Source: a virus (Duplodnaviria; Caudoviricetes). From it: 64,000 nt of DNA. The position numbers and the translations under genes were made by a program. Position 1 is the first letter of the stretch; each line of letters starts with the position of its first letter. Where the stretch lies: IMG/VR virus record IMGVR_UViG_3300028048_000052, positions 96,001-160,000 of that record; one strand, 5' to 3'. Shown here in pieces: positions 4,736-64,000 of the stretch. The notes beneath the pieces are model-generated. The model made no database searches, was not told the origin of the DNA, and saw nothing but the letters and a program-made list of their open reading frames with translations.

Positions 4736-4871
4736 ATCCACAAAACTTACCATTGAACAAAAGAAAGAAATGGTTAATATTTTAAAAGACTTAAAAGAAG
4801 AACAAACTACTTTTAATGCTGACCCAATAAGTGAATTAGTAGCTGATGGAGAAGTTGAAAATGCAGTTTAA
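4686..4871 (+). CDS. Small lysis-cassette hypothetical protein
   Basis: AAGGAG RBS; overlaps both the holin and the lysin. Confidence 0.5.
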   Translation: MARKSNQQPSLKSQKAKSTKLTIEQKKEMVNILKDLKEEQTTFNADPISELVADGEVENAV

Positions 4872-6054
4872 TATTAGAACAACAAAACCGCAAGCTGGTA
4901 ATAAAAACTATATTAAAACAACTTATGGTGGTTGAAATACTTGTGTTATTGGGAGTCCAACAGATAAAGATTGTAATGTTTTAAGCAATTGCGTTGGATA
5001 TGCAAGTGGAAGATTTAATGAAATTTATAATGAAATTACTGGACACACTGGAAGCCATAAGTGAAATATTCTTAATTGCAATGCTGAAAACTTTATTGAA
5101 AGAGCAGAACAATTAGGATTAAAAATTTCAAAAACGCCAACTCTTGGTGGTATAATGGTATGACAAAAAGGTAGTTTAAATTGGCAAGATGGCGCTGGCC
5201 ATGTTGGTGTTGTTGAAAAAATTATTGACGATAATACCATTTATACAAGCGAAAGTGCATGAGGTGGTAGCGCATTTTATAATTCAACCAGAAGAAACAC
5301 AAATGGTAGATGGGGTATGGGCTCAGCTTATTCTTTTAGAGGCTGTATTGTAAACCCGGCTGTTAAAACCATAAAAGTTGCATCAAATGTTAAAAGAGAT
5401 GAAACAAAAGAGCAGGTTGAAGTATTGGTTCCAGATTTAAATGTTAGAATGGAACCAAGCACAAAAGCAACACGTATTGGATTTGCTAAAAAAGGATATT
5501 ACAATATTTTAAACAAAAAAGTTGCTGAAGGGTATACTTGATTAAATATTGCCGAAGATCAATATATCGCATTTAACAATGAGTGAGAAAAAATTTTGGA
5601 ACCTAAGAAAGAAGAAGAACCGGTAGTGCCAACCCCAACTCCAATTCCAGAACCAATTAAACCAACTTTAAAATTTAAAATTGGCGATCAAGTTGTTATT
5701 TCTGGTAAATTATATGCAAGTTCAAATGCAACTATTGCCACGGCTTCTGTATTAGGAAAAGTGACAAAAATTACGCGAGTCGTCGCTGGTGCAAAACATC
5801 CATATAACACCACAAATGATTTGGGTTGAATGGATGAAAGCTCAATTCAATTCTATAATAACGCAGTACCAAAAGAAACAATTAAGGTTGGAGATAAAGT
5901 AAAAGTATTAAAAAATGTAACATATGATGGTAAAAAATTCTTGGCTTTATTCTCTAAATATGATGTTATTGAAGTTAAAGGCAATAGAATTGTTATTGGT
6001 ATTGGTAAGGTTGTTACCGCGGCGGTTCATAAAGACAATTTAAAGAAGGTATAA
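4861..6054 (+). CDS. CHAP-domain endolysin with SH3-like binding domains (397 aa, TGA=Trp)
   Basis: One frame joins track ORFs 5317, 5596 and 5830 through 7 TGAs; catalytic NCVGYA and GAGHVGVVE; PT-rich linker. Confidence 0.9.
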
Positions 6055-45896: not shown

Positions 45897-46499
45897 ATGA
45901 ATATTAATGCAGATGCAATGTTATCATATATTTTGGTTGCTGTTGGGGGATTTTTAATTAAATATCTTTGAGATAAAATGGTTGAAAATGGCAAAGAAAA
46001 ATCAGAAAAAGCTGAAGCGTATGATAAAAAAGTTTTAAGAGAGGTTGTAGAAGACATTGTAAAAGAGTCTTGTATGCAATTTAAAGGCGGATTAGAAGAA
46101 TCAATTAATGAATTTAAAGCTCATGCCGAAAATGAATTTAAAAGATATAGCGAAATGTATTGGAAAGCTGTTGGTAATTTAGAAGATGTTGAAAAGAACT
46201 TCAAACATTTAAGAGAACAAGATTTAGCATTTTATAAATACCAATTAATTAATAGCTGTAAAAAATATATTTCACAAGGTTTTATTACACAATATCAATT
46301 TGATAGATTAAGTGAATTACATAAGATTTATCATGATTTAGGCGGTAATAGCCAAGGTGATATGTATTATGAAAAAGCAACTCAATTAAAAATTATTAGC
46401 GATAATTCTTATAAAGCAATTGATCAAATGGATGATGAATTATATGTTACGGAGGCCGATATGAAAGACCTGCACGTAAAAAAAGAGGAAGAACAATAA
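45897..46499 (+). CDS. TM plus coiled-coil protein with YHDLGGN motif (holin-associated type; 1 TGA)
   Basis: GGAGG RBS; ATG 45897 is in frame with track ORF 45978 through a TGA. Confidence 0.65.
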
Positions 46500-46518
46500 A
46501 GTTCTTCCTCTTTTTTTA
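46480..46518. terminator. Bidirectional terminator at the strand convergence
   Basis: AAAAGAGGAAGAAC-aataaa-GTTCTTCCTCTTTT. Confidence 0.7.
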
Positions 46519-46563
46519 TTTATCTGGACCTTCTACATAGGCAGCCAGTTAGCCTCATGTTTA

Positions 46564-46869
46564 TGGCAGGGGGCGAAGGACTCGAACCCTCATAGCCGAG
46601 GTTGGAGCTCGGTTCGCGGTTTTGCGTACCACTGCAATTTTCATTGCCCTTGCGGTTTGTGGTCTGGACTATATCTTCACCATATATCTCTACTTAGGTG
46701 GCTGATTATCTAGTCTCTACGGGCCAAATTACTCTGTTCCCTCGGTGTTACCAGTTAAGGATTCACCGATATCATCAGCTCCACTATTACTGTTTCCAGT
46801 AATAGGCTCCAATTGAGTAAAATTACTCTTTTTAAAGACCGATTCCGTTCCCAACGGTGAAAACCCCCT
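46564..46869 (-). tRNA. Atypical tRNA, anticodon UCA after splicing (putative Trp opal decoder); exons 46869-46835 and 46624-46564
   Basis: Acceptor AGGGGGT/GCCCCCT-G-CCA; T arm GAGGG-TTCGAGT-CCTTC; spliced anticodon arm CGGT-CTT|CAAA-ACCG; extra CCGAG-CTCCAAC-CTCGG arm. Confidence 0.85.
46625..46834 (-). ncRNA. 210-nt group I intron (IC3-like) inside the tRNA anticodon
   Basis: P1 CTT|T-AAAA-AGAG with U.G pair; CTATTACTG-GAAA-CAGTAATAG; GCTGAT/ATCAGC P3; GTAGAGACTA and AAGATATAGTCC core; terminal G. Confidence 0.9.
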
Positions 46870-47149: not shown

Positions 47150-47599
47150 TTACTCTTCAATTGTAGACAATTCCGGTGCTACTTCAGGTGTAGGGACAAT
47201 AACCGGAATGTATTTGTTTGCATTAACAGCAGCCTCAATTTGTTGCTTAATATATAACTCTAAATCACCAACAATATTAGTAAGATAAACCTGCGCCTCA
47301 TCTGTTAAAATCGCTAATACGGCATCATATGTCTTTTTAAAAGCTTCTTTTTGCGCTTCGGCATCAAAAGCATTTTTATCTTTTAAAGCATCGACATAAG
47401 TTTGATTTGTAGCAATAACACAAGTTTCAATGGTATTCATTAACAAATCCATATATTTTCTTGCTAATTCATTATCTGTAGAAGCAGCGGCCTCTGCCTT
47501 TTTAATCTTTAAATATTCAATTAAAAAATTACAGAGAATACCCAAAAGTGGAATAATGCAAACCTGAAAAATCTTTTCTAATAATTCTACGTAGTTCAT
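47150..47599 (-). CDS. LL-H-type holin-like protein
   Basis: N-terminal TM; CVIATNQTYVDALK...IEAAV pattern. Confidence 0.65.
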   Translation of the reverse strand: MNYVELLEKIFQVCIIPLLGILCNFLIEYLKIKKAEAAASTDNELARKYMDLLMNTIETCVIATNQTYVDALKDKNAFDAEAQKEAFKKTYDAVLAILTDEAQVYLTNIVGDLELYIKQQIEAAVNANKYIPVIVPTPEVAPELSTIEE

Positions 47600-50835: not shown

Positions 50836-53800
50836 TTATGGTTCACACCAAGTTATTTGGTTATCCCCAACTATTTCTATAAATCTTGCTCATGGAGCAT
50901 CTTCTTTGCCCTTATTTGTATAAATTATATAAGAATAAGGAACAGACGTTGTACGGAATGGATTACCGCTACCATCTGGCAAAGTGGCTAAATTACTAGG
51001 ATCATTAATATCACCAATTTGGAATGTTGTAATTGCGGTAGCACCACCAACAGTGTCATTATAGCTAAAGCTATTTGTGCCCAAGGCTTTTACACAACCC
51101 GGAATTATAAAGGTTGTATTAGTTGTAGGCTTTAAAGCGTGGTTAAATGCATTAGCGTCAATTGATATTAAATGAATACATTGAGCCAACGATCTATTTT
51201 CCAAACTTTCACATCTTCTAAATGCATTTTCTCTAATAACAGAAAGAGATGCCGGGAATTCTACATAAGCAAGGCTTGTGCAGTTTGCTAAACAATATTT
51301 GTCATAAACCTCAGGAACAGCTCCAGTTTCCCAGAAGATATGAGTAATTTCTGTATTGTGGGAGAATCCGTTTAATGATTCATTTGAAGAGCTTATTGAT
51401 AATCCACCAACTTTTACTCCACCAACTGTCTTCGGTAAAGTGACTTTTCCTCTTACGCTATAACCTTCTTTTAATTTGATATAAACGCAAGGTTCACCTA
51501 AAGAGTAAGCGCCTCTAACATCATTGGTATAAGTATAGTCTTCTGTTTCAAAGAATTCTTCGCTTATTGGATTATTGTGAACATCGCCAATTTCAAAAAT
51601 TGGATAGTATGATAAATTAGAAGTAACTTTCTTTTGAGCGATATTTGCAAGATCTCCGTCTGGAGTTGTGGACCAGCCTCGTAAGATATAAGTATCTTCT
51701 AATGGTAAACTAAGGTCATTCTTATAAGGAGTTCTCTTTGGCGTTGGCACATATTGTCCATAAGGTACGAGGACAGTAACTTGTTCTTGCTGATTAAGGC
51801 CAGTAATCAAATAAACAGGATTATTAGCATCTTCAACAAGTAAATTTCCATCACCATCATAGAACTTAATACCAAATTTTTGTAATTCAAAAATTGCGTA
51901 TAAAGTAATGACACTATTTGTTTCGCTAAATTTACATTCATCAGTAGAAAGGGCTTGACCATCTGTAAATGTTTGGGTAAGAAGATCATAATTCCAAACC
52001 ATCTTATTTCCTTCTGGATCTAATGCCCATCCTTTAAATGTATAATTAGTTTTTGAAGGGATCTTTGTTGTTCTCGTCGGATTTTGATTTTCATACTGAC
52101 TTGGCGCAAAACGAATTACATCAATTTCGTTTTCTTTACCACTATCAATAATTTGTACATACTTAGCAATGTATGATTCACTAATATTTTCAGCTCTAAT
52201 TATTAAATTAGGCCAGTATTTACCGTATTTATTAGTTAATTCATCTTCTGCAATAGCAGTACCATCTGCGTTAGCAACAAATAAGCTACCGGTAATTGTT
52301 GGAACAGTAGCCCTACTTGCCATTGAATCATTGTTATTTGTAAATTGATTAATAGCACCTCTACTAAGGCCATCTTCATAATCATCAATAAATTTATCTA
52401 ATAATTCAAGACTTGTAATTGTTGATTTCGGTGCGCTTTCATCAAAGGTATAAACTCTACCATTTAAGGTATCGTTTTCCCAAGTTGTTCTTGTGTATGG
52501 TTCATAAGTGCTATGGTCAGTTACATAATAGTAATTAACTCCGTCTTGTTTTGTTTCACCATACTCAACTTGCGTATATGGAGACCAATCAATTTCATCC
52601 ATTCTGATCTTCAAACGACCACCAGCATTTTCTTTGATTTCAACGGCATTTCTTAATATTGTATAAGAATCATAACCAAGAGCATCGCCTTCAAATTCAA
52701 TTATACCCAAATCACTAGCTACGATAGGAGCACCACTGACATAATCGGTTAATCCTTCGACATATAAACCAGCATATTCTGATTCTGGTCTATAAACTAA
52801 TTTATTATCAACCACATCGGCAACAACTGGTGCAGTTTTTAAAATTCTTGTTAAATTCTTATTTTGAATAAATTTTAATATTGTAACAGTTGATGGTAAA
52901 TGTACAATTGTTAATGGAGCACCATCAGCAAATAACGCATATTTTAATTTAGTATCTAATGCTCTAAATTCACGCAACTTCTTTGGATTTGTTATATCAA
53001 GGAATGTATCAAAGTTACGTAAGTGCGTTAAATTAATTTTTTGTAATAATGGTTTTTCATTGCTATTTGCACCAGTACCTAAGTCAAAGTTAGCAACCTT
53101 TAATTTATTGTTGTAATAATTAGGAGCATCACTACCAAGTGTAATATCTAATAACTTAGCGCCTTGCGGCCAAGCAACTTCGGTAGCATACTTTGTACTT
53201 AAGTCACCGAAACTTGAAATATAATCAGCACCAGAGAAGTAGTTTAACTGCTCATCAACGGTGCCGGACTTAAAGCTCTCTAAAACACCAGTAGAAACGA
53301 TTGTATCCATTCCATCTGGGTATTTAATTGCGCTATAAGCTTCAGAGTTAGCAAATGTATTTTCATCTGTAAACCAAGTAATATAGAAGTTCAAGTATGG
53401 AGTAATCTTATATACCGGATTTGCATCATAGAATGGTACTGGATAAGTTGCTTGAATTTGATTTTCAGCGTGATTAACGTTATCCAAGTATTTATCTGAG
53501 GTATTGGCAGGGTCATTACCAGAAACACGGAATGCAACCGCATTCATTGTTTGTTGGACTGTAAATGAGCCACTATGCCATTTTGAATCCATGTATAACA
53601 GACGGTTATTGATTAATAATTCTCTTGAAAGAATTCTATCACCTTGGCAAGCATATAAGTAATTAGCTGTACCATAAGTACCATCTTGCATCTTCCATTT
53701 TTCAGTAACAGGTAATACGTATTTATAATATTCATCTAATCCAATAGCAACGATTGGTCTAACACCTCTCATAGCATATGAATTTGTGAATACATCTGGA

Positions 53801-56800
53801 TTAAATGTATAAGCACCTTCAATTGTATTGTAAGTGATTTTTGTATTTCTTAATGCTTTATAAGTAGCAATAATTTCACTTTGGAACATATCATAGAAAT
53901 TAGTCCATAAAACACTATCGCCAGTTGAGAATGTCTTATTTTCAGTTGAATCTTCATCATAATCCCATAATAAAGCACCAACGTTATTTAAACCTAACTG
54001 AGTATCAATATCATAGAAAATTGGATACCAAATGTAATCTCCACCTTGCTCATGTGGACCGAACGATGCAATCATCATATTTTTACCACGTGAGTCGTAG
54101 CAGAGTAATAATTCAGTCATGATGAAGTAAATAGTGCAGTAATGCCTATCTAAGTGCTTATTAAATTCATTTCTGAATTTTTGTCTTCTATATTCAACGG
54201 TATCATTGTGGAATGTACCGAATAATTTTTCTGAACCGCCAACCATTTCTGTCGTATAAGTAACAGTTGGATCATCAGAACGAGCAGTAACGCTCATCTT
54301 AATTGGCGTATCAAATACGAAATCTGGGCGAGCATGGGTTGTATCTGTGCTGTCTAACCAGTCAAATAAAACTTTAAGGTTGGCCATCTTTCTATTCATA
54401 TAAGCACAAATATCTGCGTTAGATGTACCACCAATAACTTCAGACCAGTCATCGCCACCATCATCAATTGTTTTATAGCTCTGCGCAGTTTTGAATGCGT
54501 CTGCTTCGGCGTTATATCTTGCTTCAAAGTGTTGAGCGACTTCAATCTTTGGATTTTCATTCGTTGAGTCAGCGGTTGGAGTCATAAAGCCTAATTCTCT
54601 CGCCGCGTCGTTTGGATAACGGAATGAACACCAAGTACCTTGGTTATCTCTTAATTCCCAGCATTCTGAAATATCAGCTACTGTTTCGCCATTCATGTAT
54701 GGCTGTTCATAATCTTCTTTAAAGCCATAATATTCATTAGAACCCTTGTCTAAGTTCCAATTATAACGGCCAATATAGGTAATAGAACCATCAGCACGTT
54801 TGTGGAAACACAAGTATGGGAAACCATAAACAGAAGTTCTATAATTCTTTTGAGAAGCATCAAAGCCGATATCGTCCAATGGGTGTTTATTGTAAATACC
54901 ACTACCCATTAAATTAGCAAAACCAGAGTTATATGAGCCAGAAGATTCCATATAGTCAATCTTCCAAGTAAATACGTTTGTTGCTAAATCGACATTATCC
55001 ATATGCCAATTTTTAGCTAATTTATTACCATCAGCGAGGGTAAAATCTTTATATTTAATTTTGCCATCTGGTTGTTCTTGCGGAACACCCATAACTGATT
55101 GACCAGCCAATTCACCTTTTGTATAATTCCAATTTTTAGCTTTTTTGAACTTAGTTTTGAAATTACGTCTTGGGTATTTCTGTGAAGAAGTACCTTGAAC
55201 ATTGATATCTACATTGTCAGCCGTAAAGCTTGGGCAATGAGTATAATACTCATAATCACTAATTAAGCCATCTTCTAATAATTTATCAGCAGTTGGGTTA
55301 ACAAATGTAATTGAAACTTTTTTATTACCGCCTTTAAAGTGAGGTAATTCATCATCATTCGGTGTGCCAGAAGAGTCAATCAATACATAAGGCATTGTTA
55401 AGTTATCTGGGTGGTCAATGTTATGTTGAACCAATTTAGCATATGATAATTTTGTTGCGTCATTAACATCTGTTAACTGGTTTTCATCATATAAATTAAT
55501 ATCTTTAATATCTGCGAGATAGTTATGAATAACTTCTGGCATTGTTAAAGCGATTGTGTAAATTCTAAATTTGTATAAATCAAAATCACAATAATTGGAA
55601 TTAATCTTAAATGGAATATTTTCCATCGTGATCGCAGCGATACCAGTTAAATTAACTGCGCCAGATAAGATACCATTTAAGTAAATTGATAATGTGTCTT
55701 TTGCTTTATCAACAACAAAAGTAATATTGATAATTTCGCCTTCTTTATATCTAACATTAACTGTTTTACCAGCAGTGTTAAAGTAAGCTTCTTGAGTACC
55801 AATACAGAAACCTTCATTGTTGGAATTTAAATATTTAAATACAACATTGTTTTCAGTTTCAACAATTTTACGAGTTGTATTAGACTCTTCCATTTCCATG
55901 TTACCATCGCTATCAAGTTTTACTTCATAACCATTTTGTCTAATCCAATCAATTGTTTGTTCTTCACCAATATTGTTTAATGTACCGGCAATTGCTCTAC
56001 CATTTGCGTCCCTTTCGGTAACAGAAGTCCAATATTTATATAATGGAATTTCAGTAACCAACGTAGCATATTTTTGAGCATTTTTAATTCTAAAACGAAT
56101 TTCAAAAGTATACTGGGTTGAACCGGTATTCATTGTAATTGTCTTATATGGAATTTGAACACTCGCGCCATTCGCAATAGACAAATATGAACCTAAGCCA
56201 TCTTTATCATCTTTCCAACCGTTATTATACCAATTGAAATTATTAAGAACAGCAGAGTAATCTTTTACTTTTGATTTCCAAATGCCTCTAGTCGCAGCGA
56301 TTTCTGTGCTAGAACGACCCATAGAATCAAAGTTAATATCTAATGCAGACTGGTTGACTAAAGACAAGTCTCTCGAACCTTCTGTCGTTACAGAGAAATT
56401 AATTCTTTTGCTTGTTGCGCCAGAACTAATCATAAATTCATTTTCACCAACGTCATACAAGGTCGTAACATCCCAGTATAACCAACCATCCGCAGAATAT
56501 CTAACCAATTCTGAACTAACCTGACTTCCATTTTTATAAAAATCAACGGTTGTAGGAGCGCCATTTCTTTCATTTACGGAGTCATAGACCATATAAGGAA
56601 TAATAGCAGATTCATATTGAATTACTACTGGAGTAATATCACCAACCCAAATTAAAGGTGTATCTTCTTCATCATCAGCCCAAGAGGCTTCAAAAGAAAT
56701 TGGGTCAGATGATAATGTTACTCTATTAACATCTGCGCTTAACCATAAATCAATGGTATGTTGACCATGAGATTGTCGAGGAATAGCCACGGTTTGCGCA

Positions 56801-57723
56801 TTTTCCATATTATCATCAATTAATTTGACATTGTTATCAAACTCTTCTCCGTCAACTGCTGTATGAAGTTTTACATTTAAGCCTTTGCCATAAGGAATAT
56901 AACGGAGTTGTAAATCTCCACTTTGAACAGCAATATAATTTGTACCAGATTGCTTATCAATATGCATGTCTACAACTTTAATATTTCTTTTCCTTGTGGA
57001 AGGTAAAACGGCCATACCGGCGTTATCAGAATCGACACTTACTGTCATTGTAATATTTGAATTAATAGGTAAGAAATTTAAATTTAATTTATAAGGTTCA
57101 CCAGAACGAATACCACTTTGAGTAAAAGCTTCTGAATAACCATCGTTTCCTGTAAATTCAAAGTTTAAAGAAACATATCTATCGGTATTTCCATTAATTG
57201 CTTCACCAGTTACGGAAACATAATAATTTTGTCCTTGTACTAATGTAGCATTTGAATCAAGCGTTGATGAATCAATGGTAACTTTTAATGTCGGTTCAAC
57301 GATGCCTCCACCGCCTCCTCCGCCACCACCAGAACCACTGATGGCCATACGAGTACAGAAGTAATTTCCTTCTGCGTTAACCTTTACAAAGCGATAAAAA
57401 GCTCCATCTGTGCCAATAATTAAATCATCAACTTTAATTTCAGCTTCGCCTGTATCAACGTAAGCCGAATCAAGTACATAATAATTAGTACCATCATCGT
57501 CATCCATCGTACCAATCGGCATTTCTTCGCTTGTTGGTTGTGAGCTATAAAATAAGGAAGCTCCCGCGCTTGAACTACCAACTTTAACTCTTTCGTCTTT
57601 TGTATCTAAAAAGATTTCTCCAGAGTCCGTCGAAAAATAAATAAATCCCGGCGATATATTGGTTTGATCAATTTTTTGCCTTGTACCATACGCAGGTTTA
57701 AAAGCTATTTTCTGTTCGCTCAT
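50836..57723 (-). CDS. 2295-aa virion surface or fibre protein (lectin-like, CotH-like, LRR and B-repeat regions)
   Basis: VQGTSS..YPRRNFK, DSRGKNMM, YDIDT (CotH-like); YTFKGW B-repeats; IRENAF..C.SL LRR; TGA 17 codons before the true stop. Confidence 0.7.
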
Positions 57724-60309: not shown

Positions 60310-63300
60310 TTATTGCCATGCATTGAGTAATTCTCAATAATTACGGTCTATATTATCGGTAAAACTTCCTGTTTTTACGCCATTCTTTGTTTTGATATAA
60401 ATGTAATTCTTTTCTGGTTGTGGAGCAACATAATTTGACTCACCTTGAGTTCCAGATTCTGCGACTGCGTCTGAATGACATACCCAAATCCATCCAGATT
60501 TTACATCAGGAACAGACATTTCATTACTACCTAAACCTGTTGTTAAATTCGTAGGGATATGGTCTGGATCAGAACGAATAATACCGCAATAGTTATTAAT
60601 AATACCGCTTTCATTACCACTGCCTTCAATAGTCTGATTATTAATATTATTAATCTGCGCTTGAAGTTTATTCAAACCTTGCCCTAAAGTATCTGTCGCC
60701 GCGATTGGCGTATTAGATCCTCTATTGCTAGGACTATCTAAATCAGTTAATGGTCTATTGGCGATATGATCTAATTGCCATTGCAATTTAGCAATTGCTT
60801 CGGTAAGATTATCGTTGTCATCAACGTTATCGCCCATCGATTCATTAATGTCATTAATATAATAATTATCATAATCATTTAACGTTATGTTGTTAGCACC
60901 GGCGTTAATATGAGTAATTAATTTATTAAATGCATCACGCACAGTATCAGCAGAAGTAATTGAAACATTTCCAGAAGGAGAAGTTAAAGTACCAATTGTT
61001 GCACTACCATTTGTTTCTAATAAAATATCAGCAACTTTAACAGTGGTTTCTTTTTCTCCAATCACGTGTCCTGCGTTATCAATAACAGGGCTATGAAGAA
61101 CTATCCTATTGCCAGTAGCATCATCTGGGACAAAACCAAATGGATCATGGGCTCTATCATTATTGGCTTCATCAGCCTCTAATGTATCTTTTAAAGCATC
61201 TACGTAACCACTTAATTCATCATTACGATCTGCGTCTTCGCTTAATGGCAAATGGGTTGAATTTTCTCCATCAAAATCATTAACATTGTCATGCACAATA
61301 TCTAATATCATTTGACCAGTTTCTTCATCAAAACTAGGAGTAAGACTAACTCAAGATTCGCCATTATCATTTTCAGAATTTAAAGCGACTGGCCCAAGTT
61401 TACCATATTCATTAACTCCATATAATTGGCCCGGAATTAATGGTTGTTCAAATCCATCAATAATATCGTGCAATTGGTTAAGGCAACCCTGAACGGTATT
61501 ATTATCACGAGTTCTTGTATTACCAGATTGCAAAACCTCATTTATTCTTAATAATAAGCCATGTAAAGTATTAATATTTCTAGCAAAATCATTTAATTCT
61601 TTAAAGACTTTTGAATCTTGTTTAATGCCAATCTTTAATTTTGGATTTTCTCCGCCAAAATATTTTTCGATATCAGAATCTTCTAAAATAATTTGTGTAT
61701 TTAACTTTTGATATTTTGTAAAATCATCTTCTACTGATTCATCAACATCTATAATATAATACTCATTACCAGCGACATATAAATTCATTGGCAATTGCCC
61801 AGTAGAGAAATCAGGCCTATCAGCTGGCATATACTTATTACCATCTTTGTAATAAAGAGTAAATTCTGTATAATATCCATTTTTTCCTGCGGTGATATAC
61901 TCATTATCTACATCAAAGTTACTCGTTAATCCGAAGCCTACAAAACTTTCATCTTCAAGTTTTCCTCAATTTGGTTGATCTTTAATTTGCCAATAAGTAT
62001 ATTCTTCACTAACTCCATTGAAATCTAAATCTTCTTCTCTTAAAGAAACTCTATTAAATGAAATAATTGGATTATTTTGTTCATCTATAGTACTTAAATT
62101 AAATTCTTCACTTACATCTTCACCAGCCTCAATTGCCAATGCCCTTGCTTTTAATGGATCGTCTTCAGGGTGCCTAAAGTCAGCATAATAACATCCAGTA
62201 GTTGGTAAAGTTACCTTTTTCTTTGTGGCTGTTGCATAATGACTCTCACTTGGATCATGATTATAATATAACGGCCAGCCTAATTCTATTTTTCCTTCAG
62301 TACCATAATCTTTGTAATAACTTCTATTATTAAATAATATCCTATTTAAATCAATATGGCCAAATTCAGAAGTAACGGTTTCTCCTTCTGGGGATAGCTC
62401 TGGTGCGTGTTCATAATAATAGTGGACTTGAATTGGCTCGTTTAAATTAATTTCTGAGCTATTGGTTGCATTTCGCAATGCTTCCTTAAATTCATCAGCA
62501 CTCTTTATATCACCGTTGCTATATTTTACTCATAGATTATCTGTACCAATTTTAACTTCTGATAATTTTATATAGTTATTTCTATTAGGATCTGCGTTTT
62601 TATCTGCTTTAAGGACATACCAACGTTCATTGTCTAACATGTATCCACTAACTTCATGGAAATCTAATAACTCATACCATTTATCTGCTATTTGAGCCCC
62701 TTGTTTTCATTGATTTATTAAATATTCTCCATTATGTGCTTCATAAAAATGCTTTGGTGCACTTGGTTCTTGCGCGTCAGTGTAACCAGTAGGAATTTCT
62801 GTTTTTTCTAAATAATAAATTTCATTTTTATTAATTTTACTAGCACTTCCGACGTATTTTAATGTACTTGGTAATGTGTAGTATTTCCAACCTTCAGAAG
62901 CAATACCACTTCCATTAACACGTTTATAAATATTGCCGTTAATTTCATTACTATAAACATTGTCTGGCATCTTATTTGCCATAACTTCAAAGTAATTATC
63001 ATTACCGGTCTCATAATTTTCTTTAAATTGTTCAGCTGTTAAAGTTTCAAGCTCAGTATAAGGTATTTCTTTAAAGCCAACACTTTTTGAAACATAGTAG
63101 TAATGACCTTGCTGAATATTTTTATCTGCTGGTTCGCCGTCTTCATTTAAAGCGTTATAATCTTTTGTTGCATAATAAATTTGCCAAGTATGCGCTTTTT
63201 GAGGATCGGCATAATCATCAGTAGTTGGAATATCCTCGTTTGTAATAATCATACCCATTAAATCATGAGCACTATTAATTGTTCCAACTAAAGAATCGCC

Positions 63301-64000
63301 CTCTTCTGGAACGTATTCTGTATAGTCATCTTCTCTTGTATAATGTACTAAGTGCTGTTTTTCATTATGAGCTGTTAAAATATCATTTGCATCTTCCCAC
63401 GCATGAAGAGTTTTTCTTTTATTGGTTTGCTTATAAAGTCCAGATTTAAATTCTTCACCTTTATATTCAATATATTTTTCTTCATTTGGGTCAAGTTTTT
63501 CATAATAAGATTCATTCGCGTCAAAATCTTCTTCTAAAATCGGCTCATAACCACTCACGCCATAAATTATATCCCACATTTCTGCGACAGTATCGCCAAG
63601 AGCAGGCAAAATAACGCTTAAACCTTTCATATCATCATAAGGTTTGTTTTCAAAGTTTGTTGTAGAATCTTCATCTTGATTTGCATATTTTGTGCCAGAT
63701 TGATAATTGTCTATTTGAATAACGTTTTTGTCTTTGCCAACTCCAGAATAAACACTATTATCTCTGCTGAAGCCTATTTTATTAAAATATATAGCTCCAT
63801 TATAACTCTTTATAGTAGACTCATTTATTTTATGTTGTGTATCTAATTCAGTTCTTTTTAACTCTAATAAGCCAACATCTGTTTTTCCATCCAAATGAGG
63901 AATATCTTCTTTTAATTCATCAACATCTGCAATCATAAAACCCCAAGGAGTTTGCATATGTAAATTATAATAAACATTTGTACTATCTTTATCAAAATGC
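60310..64000 (-). CDS. Large acidic virion protein, 5'-partial (5 TGA=Trp)
   Basis: Track ORFs ending at 62707, 61966, 61351 and 60334 share one frame separated only by TGAs; true stop is TAA at 60310. Confidence 0.8.

Follow-up and report, generated by a model that had tools for sequence, protein, structure and literature searches.

A putative group I intron splits the UCA anticodon of a probable opal-suppressor tRNA in a phage that appears to read TGA as tryptophan

The split tRNA locus and its intron

The DNA considered here is a stretch of 64,000 nucleotides (hereafter the window), which corresponds to bases 96001–160000 of the gut phage record IMGVR_UViG_3300028048_000052 in IMG/VR, a record of 175,154 bp that is rated complete and has 33% G+C. 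On the minus strand of the window, from 46869 to 46564, lies a tRNA gene whose anticodon loop is interrupted, and we interpret it as the gene of a probable UGA-decoding suppressor tRNA, tRNA(UCA), split by a group I intron. The gene forms the 3' end of a minus-strand block that carries tail genes and a holin gene. An earlier note on this DNA had placed an intron without an open reading frame (ORF), 210 nt long, at 46625–46834; our coordinates agree with it to the base, and to them can be added the minus strand, which that note had left unstated.

The helices P1 to P9a of a group I intron can be laid onto the window copy with perfect pairing in each of them, the P3/P7 pseudoknot included (Table 1). 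In a MAFFT alignment of 19 tRNA introns (seven from suppressor, seven from Leu and five from Arg tRNA genes), standard pairs filled 94.6% of the helix cells, as opposed to 35–40% when the partners were slid by one to three columns. Compensatory, two-sided changes occurred at 29 of the 49 pairs, and none of 500 shuffles reached the observed values; all six pairs of P3 covaried, and covariation was also found in P2, P5, P6, P7, P8 and P9a. The window copy carries every column that is invariant across this alignment. The minimum free energy structure predicted by RNAfold for the window intron likewise recovered P2–P6, P8 and P9 (z = -4.0), P7 being absent from it because this helix is a pseudoknot. 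Judged from such features, the element is best explained as an intron of the small bacterial type found in tRNA anticodon loops, IC3-like and of the 'position 3' U/g kind known from tRNA-Leu(UAA). The class assignment follows from its position, its size and the core words it has in common with Leu and Arg tRNA introns, which are IC3 according to Williams (2020; bioRxiv 10.1101/2020.01.27.920355).

The splice junction can be placed from several sides. Among the exon pairs of P1, the C-G and the U.G pair were present in all 19 aligned introns and the U-A pair between them in 17 of 19; since these pairs are kept, the upstream exon always ends in CUU. The U.G wobble that marks the 5' splice site, kept in 19 of 19 introns, is formed in the window by 46835 with 46808. 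At the other end, the first pair of P10 is G-C in all 12 introns whose second exon starts with C (suppressor UCA and Arg UCU) and U-A in six of the seven whose second exon starts with A (Leu UAA), so that the guide base tracks exon base 35, which suggests that the ribozyme guide has followed the change of anticodon. Finally, an intron-less relative of the tRNA, L200 (IMGVR_UViG_3300026549_000075, also denoted L419; relatives are given L numbers here), reads ...GGTCTTCAAAACCG... across the predicted junction without interruption, and by BLAST the two window exons match directly abutting stretches of it. Taken together, the U.G pair of P1, the terminal G, the covariation of P10 and L200 point to a mature loop CUUCAAA with the anticodon UCA. 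This loop has seven nucleotides, with U33 and a purine at position 37, and the same loop stands in the intron-less allele. The U34|C35 junction and UCA anticodon of the earlier note are thus borne out. It had also likened P1 and the insertion point to the tRNA-Leu(UAA) introns of cyanobacteria: both do match the tRNA-Leu(UAA) introns of the phages and bacteria with which they were compared, including the phage's own.

That the suppressor would be hidden from standard tRNA annotation had been anticipated, and both ARAGORN and Rfam at its curated thresholds indeed drew a blank. On the window, ARAGORN reported no tRNA with its default settings, its intron options or a relaxed threshold, and its calls came solely from candidates spliced in silico, at relaxed thresholds; Rfam at gathering thresholds had no match in the whole window. 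The gene escapes default finders because the group I intron splits its anticodon. The phage's own tRNA-Leu(UAA) gene, which contains a sister intron (see below), is miscalled by the intron option of ARAGORN as a tRNA-Lys(ttt) with a 212-nt intron. Another tRNA of this genome is also overlooked by default ARAGORN, namely a tRNA-His(GUG) with an unusual T loop (genome 64442–64515, plus strand; L002:1284-1354), which is found by Rfam (45.6 bits) and by ARAGORN at a relaxed threshold. Neither the locus nor a 20-kb stretch around it had a BLAST match among 50,697 GenBank phage records. Phage genomes in which TGA or TAG is clearly reassigned, yet without a detectable suppressor, have been described (Yutin et al., 2021; PMC7886860). 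A scan for group I cores between tRNA halves would recover such 'missing' suppressors and thereby improve code prediction and gene calling in large gut phages.

The surroundings of the gene are listed in Table 1. Its 3' end is followed, at a distance of 44 nt, by a terminator-like hairpin that also serves the converging plus-strand gene block. The promoter-like site upstream comes from a scan in which such sites were no more frequent than in shuffled sequence (nine vs 8.9 expected).

Table 1. Features of the split tRNA gene, its predicted intron helices and the neighbouring elements (window coordinates).
Feature	Position	Strand	Description	Basis
tRNA exon 1	46835..46869	-	35 nt, ends ...GGUCUU	sequence
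Exon 1: acceptor 5' strand	46869-46863	-		sequence
Exon 1: anticodon-stem 5' strand	46842-46838	-		sequence
Exon 1: C32 U33 U34	46837-46835	-		sequence
Group I intron (predicted)	46625..46834	-	210 nt, without ORF	
P1	46837-46832 / 46812-46807	-		helices mapped on sequence
P2	46804-46797 / 46792-46785	-		helices mapped on sequence
P3	46779-46774 / 46706-46701	-		helices mapped on sequence
P4	46769-46764 / 46747-46742	-		helices mapped on sequence
P5	46760-46759 / 46752-46751	-		helices mapped on sequence
P6	46741-46739 / 46723-46721	-		helices mapped on sequence
P7	46715-46711 / 46671-46667	-		helices mapped on sequence
P8	46700-46697 / 46681-46678	-		helices mapped on sequence
P9.0	46662-46659 / 46632-46629	-		helices mapped on sequence
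P9a	46647-46643 / 46638-46634	-		helices mapped on sequence
Terminal (omega) G of intron	46625	-	invariant	19-intron alignment
tRNA exon 2	46564..46624	-	61 nt, begins CAAAACCG, CCA encoded	sequence
Exon 2: C35 A36 A37 A38	46624-46621	-		sequence
Exon 2: anticodon-stem 3' strand	46620-46616	-		sequence
Exon 2: extra arm B	46596..46612	-	5-bp stem, 7-nt loop CUCCAAC, at the class II variable-arm position	sequence
Exon 2: T arm	46591-46575	-		sequence
Exon 2: acceptor 3' strand	46574-46568	-		sequence
Exon 2: discriminator G73	46567	-		sequence
Exon 2: CCA	46566-46564	-		sequence
Bidirectional terminator-like hairpin	46479..46520	both	16 pairs, A- and T-rich flanks	Rfam alignment; several Rfam hairpin models match either strand
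62-aa ORF, function unassigned	47060-46872	-	ends 2 nt before the tRNA	
Promoter-like site TTGGTA-18-TATAAT	47113-47084	-		promoter scan
Terminator-like hairpin after holin gene	47140-47123	-		terminator scan
Holin gene	47150..47599	-	without in-frame TGA; closest annotated upstream neighbour of the tRNA	phrog_13712, E 1.9e-29

TGA codons and the identity of the tRNA

The genome offers ample work for a UGA-decoding tRNA. Many long frames open solely when TGA is read as sense. The lysis and nuclease genes that had been named as containing TGA do so, with seven in-frame codons in a CHAP endolysin (window 4843–6054) and three to five in each of three GIY-YIG nuclease genes. Tail genes, the tape measure gene included, hold four to 15 each. 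Among 120 homologues of the endolysin, the columns that face its TGA codons are occupied by W (in up to 112 of 120), Y or F, and never by S, L, G or C. At the other extreme, the gene for a 1277-aa DNA polymerase has 18 TGG and no TGA codons, and translation table 11 leaves most of the remaining plus-strand ORFs in that block intact. No other tRNA with a UCA anticodon was found in the 175-kb genome, even at relaxed thresholds. Read at the level of its codons and their homologous columns, this phage evidently uses TGA for tryptophan.

Two further observations concern this code usage. A 2277-aa gene (window 50836–57723, minus strand) has 32 TGG codons, no in-frame TGA and a TGA stop, and shares its strand with the recoded tail genes, which sit further along the minus-strand block than this standard-code gene; read-through of its stop under an active suppressor would add 18 residues. 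In addition, on the minus strand from window 60310 to 64000 and on to genome position 160866, the table-11 ORFs 60334–61350, 61351–61965, 61966–62529 and 62707 onward share one frame and are separated by TGA codons; the joined frame from window 60310 has 1518 codons, six of them TGA, and matched neither Pfam nor PHROG.

The spliced tRNA has a 7-bp acceptor stem, and its acceptor, anticodon and T arms are regular, with an anticodon stem of four pairs plus a U-C mismatch. A first pair A1-U72 and the discriminator base G73 are marks of bacterial tRNA-Trp and determinants for tryptophanyl-tRNA synthetase (TrpRS), and both are present in the window tRNA. G73 is also found in all 22 intron-less relatives, a set in whose selection G73 was itself used, and in the intron-containing relatives that were parsed; the first pair of the intron-less set is A-U in 19 of 22 and G.U in the other three.

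The most unusual part of the molecule is an extra arm, arm B, whose loop is a copy of the anticodon loop of tRNA-Trp(CCA). A fold with five arms accounts for 93.8% of the cells as paired in the 22 intron-less relatives, and all five stem pairs of arm B covary; the invariance of its loop in that set is partly due to how the set was selected. The UCCA of the loop is, moreover, kept in all intron-containing relatives with a long arm, which were not selected on UCCA, with the exception of L107. This near-perfect anticodon stem-loop of tRNA-Trp (five pairs and CUCCAAC), followed by a 4-nt linker of the size of a class I variable loop, and the conservation of its loop while its stem covaries across dozens of tRNA(UCA) genes of phages, might be taken to mean that arm B is the working anticodon arm and reads UGG, with the UCA arm as an accessory, or that either arm can be used. 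However, the helices follow one another (acceptor, D, arm A, arm B, T) as they do in a class II tRNA, with arm B in the place of the variable arm, and class I relatives with the same intron (L025, L035, L096) lack arm B and have the UCA arm alone, together with a 4-nt variable loop. The phage also has a separate, ordinary tRNA-Trp(CCA) and needs a decoder for UGA. We regard a working arm B as very unlikely, and, given the class II helix order and the class I relatives, read the UCA arm as the anticodon arm. Arm B would then be an added element, possibly a decoy that preserves recognition by TrpRS, and its likeness to the Trp anticodon loop raises the question of how a tRNA with the anticodon UCA keeps its tryptophan identity.

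Other identities were considered and rejected. For tRNA-Sec, the acceptor stem has 7 rather than 8 bp, the score against RF01852 was 19.3 bits vs 47, the TGA sites are aromatic and never Cys, and true Sec-like tRNAs differ from this one. The long extra arm might also recall tRNA-Ser or tRNA-Leu; the TGA sites are W, Y and F, the acceptor stem has 7 bp, and A1-U72 and G73 are Trp-like.

Relatives of the intron and its probable role as a passenger

An 18-nt word from the intron core was found in 50 IMG/VR contigs, many of the matches being tRNA genes (Leu UAA, Arg UCU and UCA) whose anticodon loop is interrupted, and a pattern made of the intron 3' end and exon 2 retrieved 70 IMG/VR loci, at least 47 of which are split tRNA(UCA) genes. 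These 47 loci hold 33 distinct introns of 192–707 nt, and the long ones carry an ORF in the loop of P1. In four of the five such ORFs tested (L039, L075, L076, L103) this encodes a PD-(D/E)XK nuclease of PF11645 (E 1e-12 to 1e-18), which we take to be the family of I-Ssp6803I, and in L078 an HNH nuclease. The intron of the window has no ORF in its 210 nt and, because its relatives hold PF11645 or HNH ORFs, appears to be an ORF-less derivative. The PD-(D/E)XK ORFs of three relatives (L076:3005-3508, L096:3216-3716 and L098:8211-8693, all on the minus strand) have an in-frame TGA near the N-terminus, so that their translation would depend on the very tRNA they interrupt.

Other phages, moreover, do without the intron. 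A pattern for the spliced junction brought up many intron-less tRNA(UCA) genes, and two pairs of alleles illustrate the difference: the exons of the intron-less L154 are identical at 94 of 94 positions to those of L094, which has a 605-nt intron, with flanks collinear at 85–97%, and those of the intron-less L246 agree with L074 at 93 of 94. Counting TGA as sense lifts the ORF cover of two 14-kb loci, from 0.50 to 0.75 in L419 and from 0.54 to 0.72 in L154, and some of their frames hold 7–11 TGAs, that is, both are TGA-recoded. About 490 nt upstream of its split tRNA(UCA), L094 also has a degenerate copy of exon 1 (5686–5760, plus strand) with a CUUUAAA loop and no proper 3' half, which may be a relic of a duplication or homing event.

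Nor is the intron confined to suppressors. Outside the window, the canonical tRNA-Leu(UAA) gene of the phage (genome 64519–64811, plus strand; L002:1361-1653) contains a sister intron of about 205 nt after U34. More than 120 species of bacteria, spread over many phyla, contain a 17-mer of the intron core (L252-L371); among them the parsed host genes were those of tRNA-Arg (16), tRNA-Leu(UAA) (14) and tRNAs with the anticodon CAU (Ile/Met; six), and a second exon of the CAAA type was seen in none of 45 parsed matches. By these sequence matches, the family appears far wider than the examples classically known from cyanobacteria and proteobacteria. The tRNA cluster that contains the tRNA-Leu(UAA) gene is immediately followed by a phage-encoded tmRNA (genome 64817–65162, plus strand; L002:1659-2004), which scores 81.6 bits with RF00023, above the gathering score, and for which ARAGORN gives the tag peptide AKFIKNIIANIKSLFATPTMAYTFA.

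We thus arrive at an interpretation that we hold to be quite probable: the gene would encode a real opal-suppressor tRNA of tryptophan identity whose UCA anticodon is split by a 210-nt group I intron, and this intron would be a selfish passenger rather than a timer. A precursor transcribed from the minus strand would fold its intron into P1–P9; an external guanosine would cut on the 3' side of 46835, the U of the invariant wobble pair, a 3-bp P10 (C35-G, A36-U, A37-U) would align the 3' exon, and the terminal G (46625) would be released as the exons are joined into the loop CUUCAAA. Once charged with Trp, the mature tRNA (A1-U72, G73 and UCA) would read the many UGA codons that lie in frame in homing-nuclease and radical-SAM genes and in those for the tail and for lysis. 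As for the intron, it is most likely a selfish element that was once mobile and whose nuclease gene has been lost. What points to a passenger is that other recoded phages have this tRNA without it, that it is not specific to suppressors and that it belongs with homing-type nucleases; since the element removes itself, its cost would be low and it could be tolerated.

A regulatory role had been proposed instead, in which splicing acts as a delay or checkpoint: slow or regulated splicing would hold back tRNA(UCA), and the TGA-containing tail, lysis and nuclease genes would stay silent early in infection. By its sequence, the precursor does lack an anticodon before splicing, TGA is concentrated in the genes for the tail, the endolysin and the homing nucleases and absent from those replication genes that were examined, and another RNA-processing step, that of the theta ribozymes beside suppressor tRNAs, has been suggested to contribute to the code switch (PMC10879173). 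Yet the intron-less alleles in other phages have identical or near-identical exons, and the loci checked among them (L154, L419) are recoded all the same; introns of this family also interrupt tRNAs that are no suppressors, the tRNA-Leu(UAA) of this phage among them; and the introns of relatives contain homing-type nuclease genes. Furthermore, transcription alone could set the timing of a tRNA at the 3' end of the minus-strand tail and holin block, because it comes after the holin gene, a terminator-like hairpin, a promoter-like site and the 62-aa ORF, and ahead of a bidirectional terminator. The checkpoint proposed earlier is therefore disfavoured, and we consider a splicing-gated code switch unlikely. 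There is similarly little probability in a combined reading, by which the intron is a passenger by origin that has been co-opted here, with splicing efficiency (through GTP, Mg2+, co-transcriptional folding or a phage protein) setting the onset of tRNA(UCA); if true, a ribozyme would be gating a change of genetic code during infection.

Several points weigh against the interpretation of a functional suppressor with a passenger intron. That the intron splices, how fast it does so, and that the tRNA is charged and decodes UGA are deduced from sequence and relatives, and although other phages do without the intron, it could still affect timing in this one. The local match to the Rfam model Intron_gpI (RF00028; 46844–46643, minus strand, E 4.5e-5) scored 28.1 bits, below the gathering score of 50. 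A second U.G pair adjacent to the first (46834) is a formal alternative as the 5' splice site and would give an 8-nt loop. Finally, the D region of exon 1 is atypical (a 3-bp CCG/CGG stem, a GG-containing loop and a 5-nt linker), the spliced tRNA (tca) is accepted by ARAGORN solely at a relaxed threshold, and the copy could be impaired.

Some of these points can be answered. With 45.4 bits, even the textbook-type intron in the tRNA-Leu(UAA) gene of this phage falls short of the RF00028 gathering score, and Williams (2020; bioRxiv 10.1101/2020.01.27.920355) describes an Rfam seed without bacterial introns and cut-offs of 18–20 bits; the low score is thus better seen as a limit of model sensitivity than as counter-evidence. 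A 5' site at 46834 was rejected: only one U.G is present in the Leu introns, and its homologous position makes 46835 the last base of the exon, and the loop of the intron-less allele has 7 rather than 8 nt. As for the D region, it is shared with L200, the closest homologue of the window tRNA (83 of 93 positions identical; 91% over 46 nt in the exon 1 region and 87% in exon 2). The acceptor pair G6-C67 of the window is A6-U67 in L200, and the stem of arm B shows similar compensatory changes; the shared D region and these changes argue for a tRNA subtype under purifying selection. A search for further relatives with a 17-mer of this D region gave L200/L419 as the sole real match, the 73 other metagenome matches being due to chance.

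The same features bear on the idea that the gene is a decaying relic and that UGA is read by a host tRNA or by the near-cognate tRNA-Trp(CCA) of the phage. The odd D region, the failure of default ARAGORN, the low Rfam score and the missing nuclease ORF would all fit decay. On the other hand, every intron helix is perfect and all family-invariant columns are present, the D region shared with L200 and the compensatory changes in acceptor and arm B speak for purifying selection, and efficient decoding is required by genes that contain as many as 15 in-frame TGAs. We find a relic highly improbable.

Comparison with known systems

When phage group I introns were reviewed by Hausner et al. (2014; PMC3984707), those then known were all in protein genes, in spite of the many tRNA genes of phages. 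In bacteria, Williams (2020; bioRxiv 10.1101/2020.01.27.920355) lists 21 settings of tRNA introns, with Leu.3Ug as the classical one. The window intron resembles the bacterial and plastid IC3 tRNA introns (Leu.3Ug and the Arg, fMet and Ile2 types) in its insertion after U34 (CUU|...g|NAAA), its small size and its helices, and it has in common with them the invariant U.G, the terminal G and core words found in Leu and Arg introns and across many bacterial phyla. It differs in that its host gene is a phage stop-codon suppressor tRNA(UCA) and in that its guide base is G, matching C35, where Leu introns have U. Our findings would therefore extend tRNA-anticodon group I introns to the tRNA genes of phages, and to a tRNA that exists solely to change the genetic code; a literature search of incomplete coverage turned up no description of a group I intron in a suppressor tRNA of a phage.

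Among recoded phages, the closest parallel is with the suppressors of code-4 phages (Borges et al., bioRxiv 10.1101/2021.08.26.457843; PMC7886860). Common to both are a phage-encoded UCA tRNA with TGA apparently read as Trp, a concentration of TGA mainly in tail, lysis and homing-nuclease genes, and the presence of standard-code genes in the same genome. In contrast to those suppressors, the window gene is interrupted, and so escapes the tRNA finders of such surveys, and it has an extra arm with a CCA loop.

With respect to mobility, a homing endonuclease of the I-Ssp6803I type (PD-(D/E)XK) is known from a tRNA-fMet intron of cyanobacterial origin (Bonocora and Shub, 2001, as cited in PMC3984707). 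The relatives L039, L075, L076 and L103 resemble that system in having a PF11645 ORF in the P1 loop of an intron in a tRNA anticodon loop, whereas the window copy is without an ORF. 'Enigmatic' tRNA introns have also been described in Lak megaphages (Devoto et al., bioRxiv 10.1101/356790), in Phe, Gly, Thr and Tyr tRNAs; in the portion of that preprint at hand, Rfam was tested and no class is reported. As with the intron described here, they are present in some and absent from other related phages, but within that same portion the Lak introns are unlinked to a suppressor.

A further comparison is with the theta (hepatitis delta virus-like) ribozymes that lie beside phage suppressor tRNAs and for which Kienbeck et al. 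(2024; PMC10879173) propose a part in the code switch. In both cases a self-processing RNA is joined to a phage suppressor tRNA whose maturation would need the action of a ribozyme. However, theta ribozymes cut a 3' trailer, nearly all of them with UAG suppressors of code 15, whereas here a group I intron would be excised from the anticodon of a UGA suppressor.

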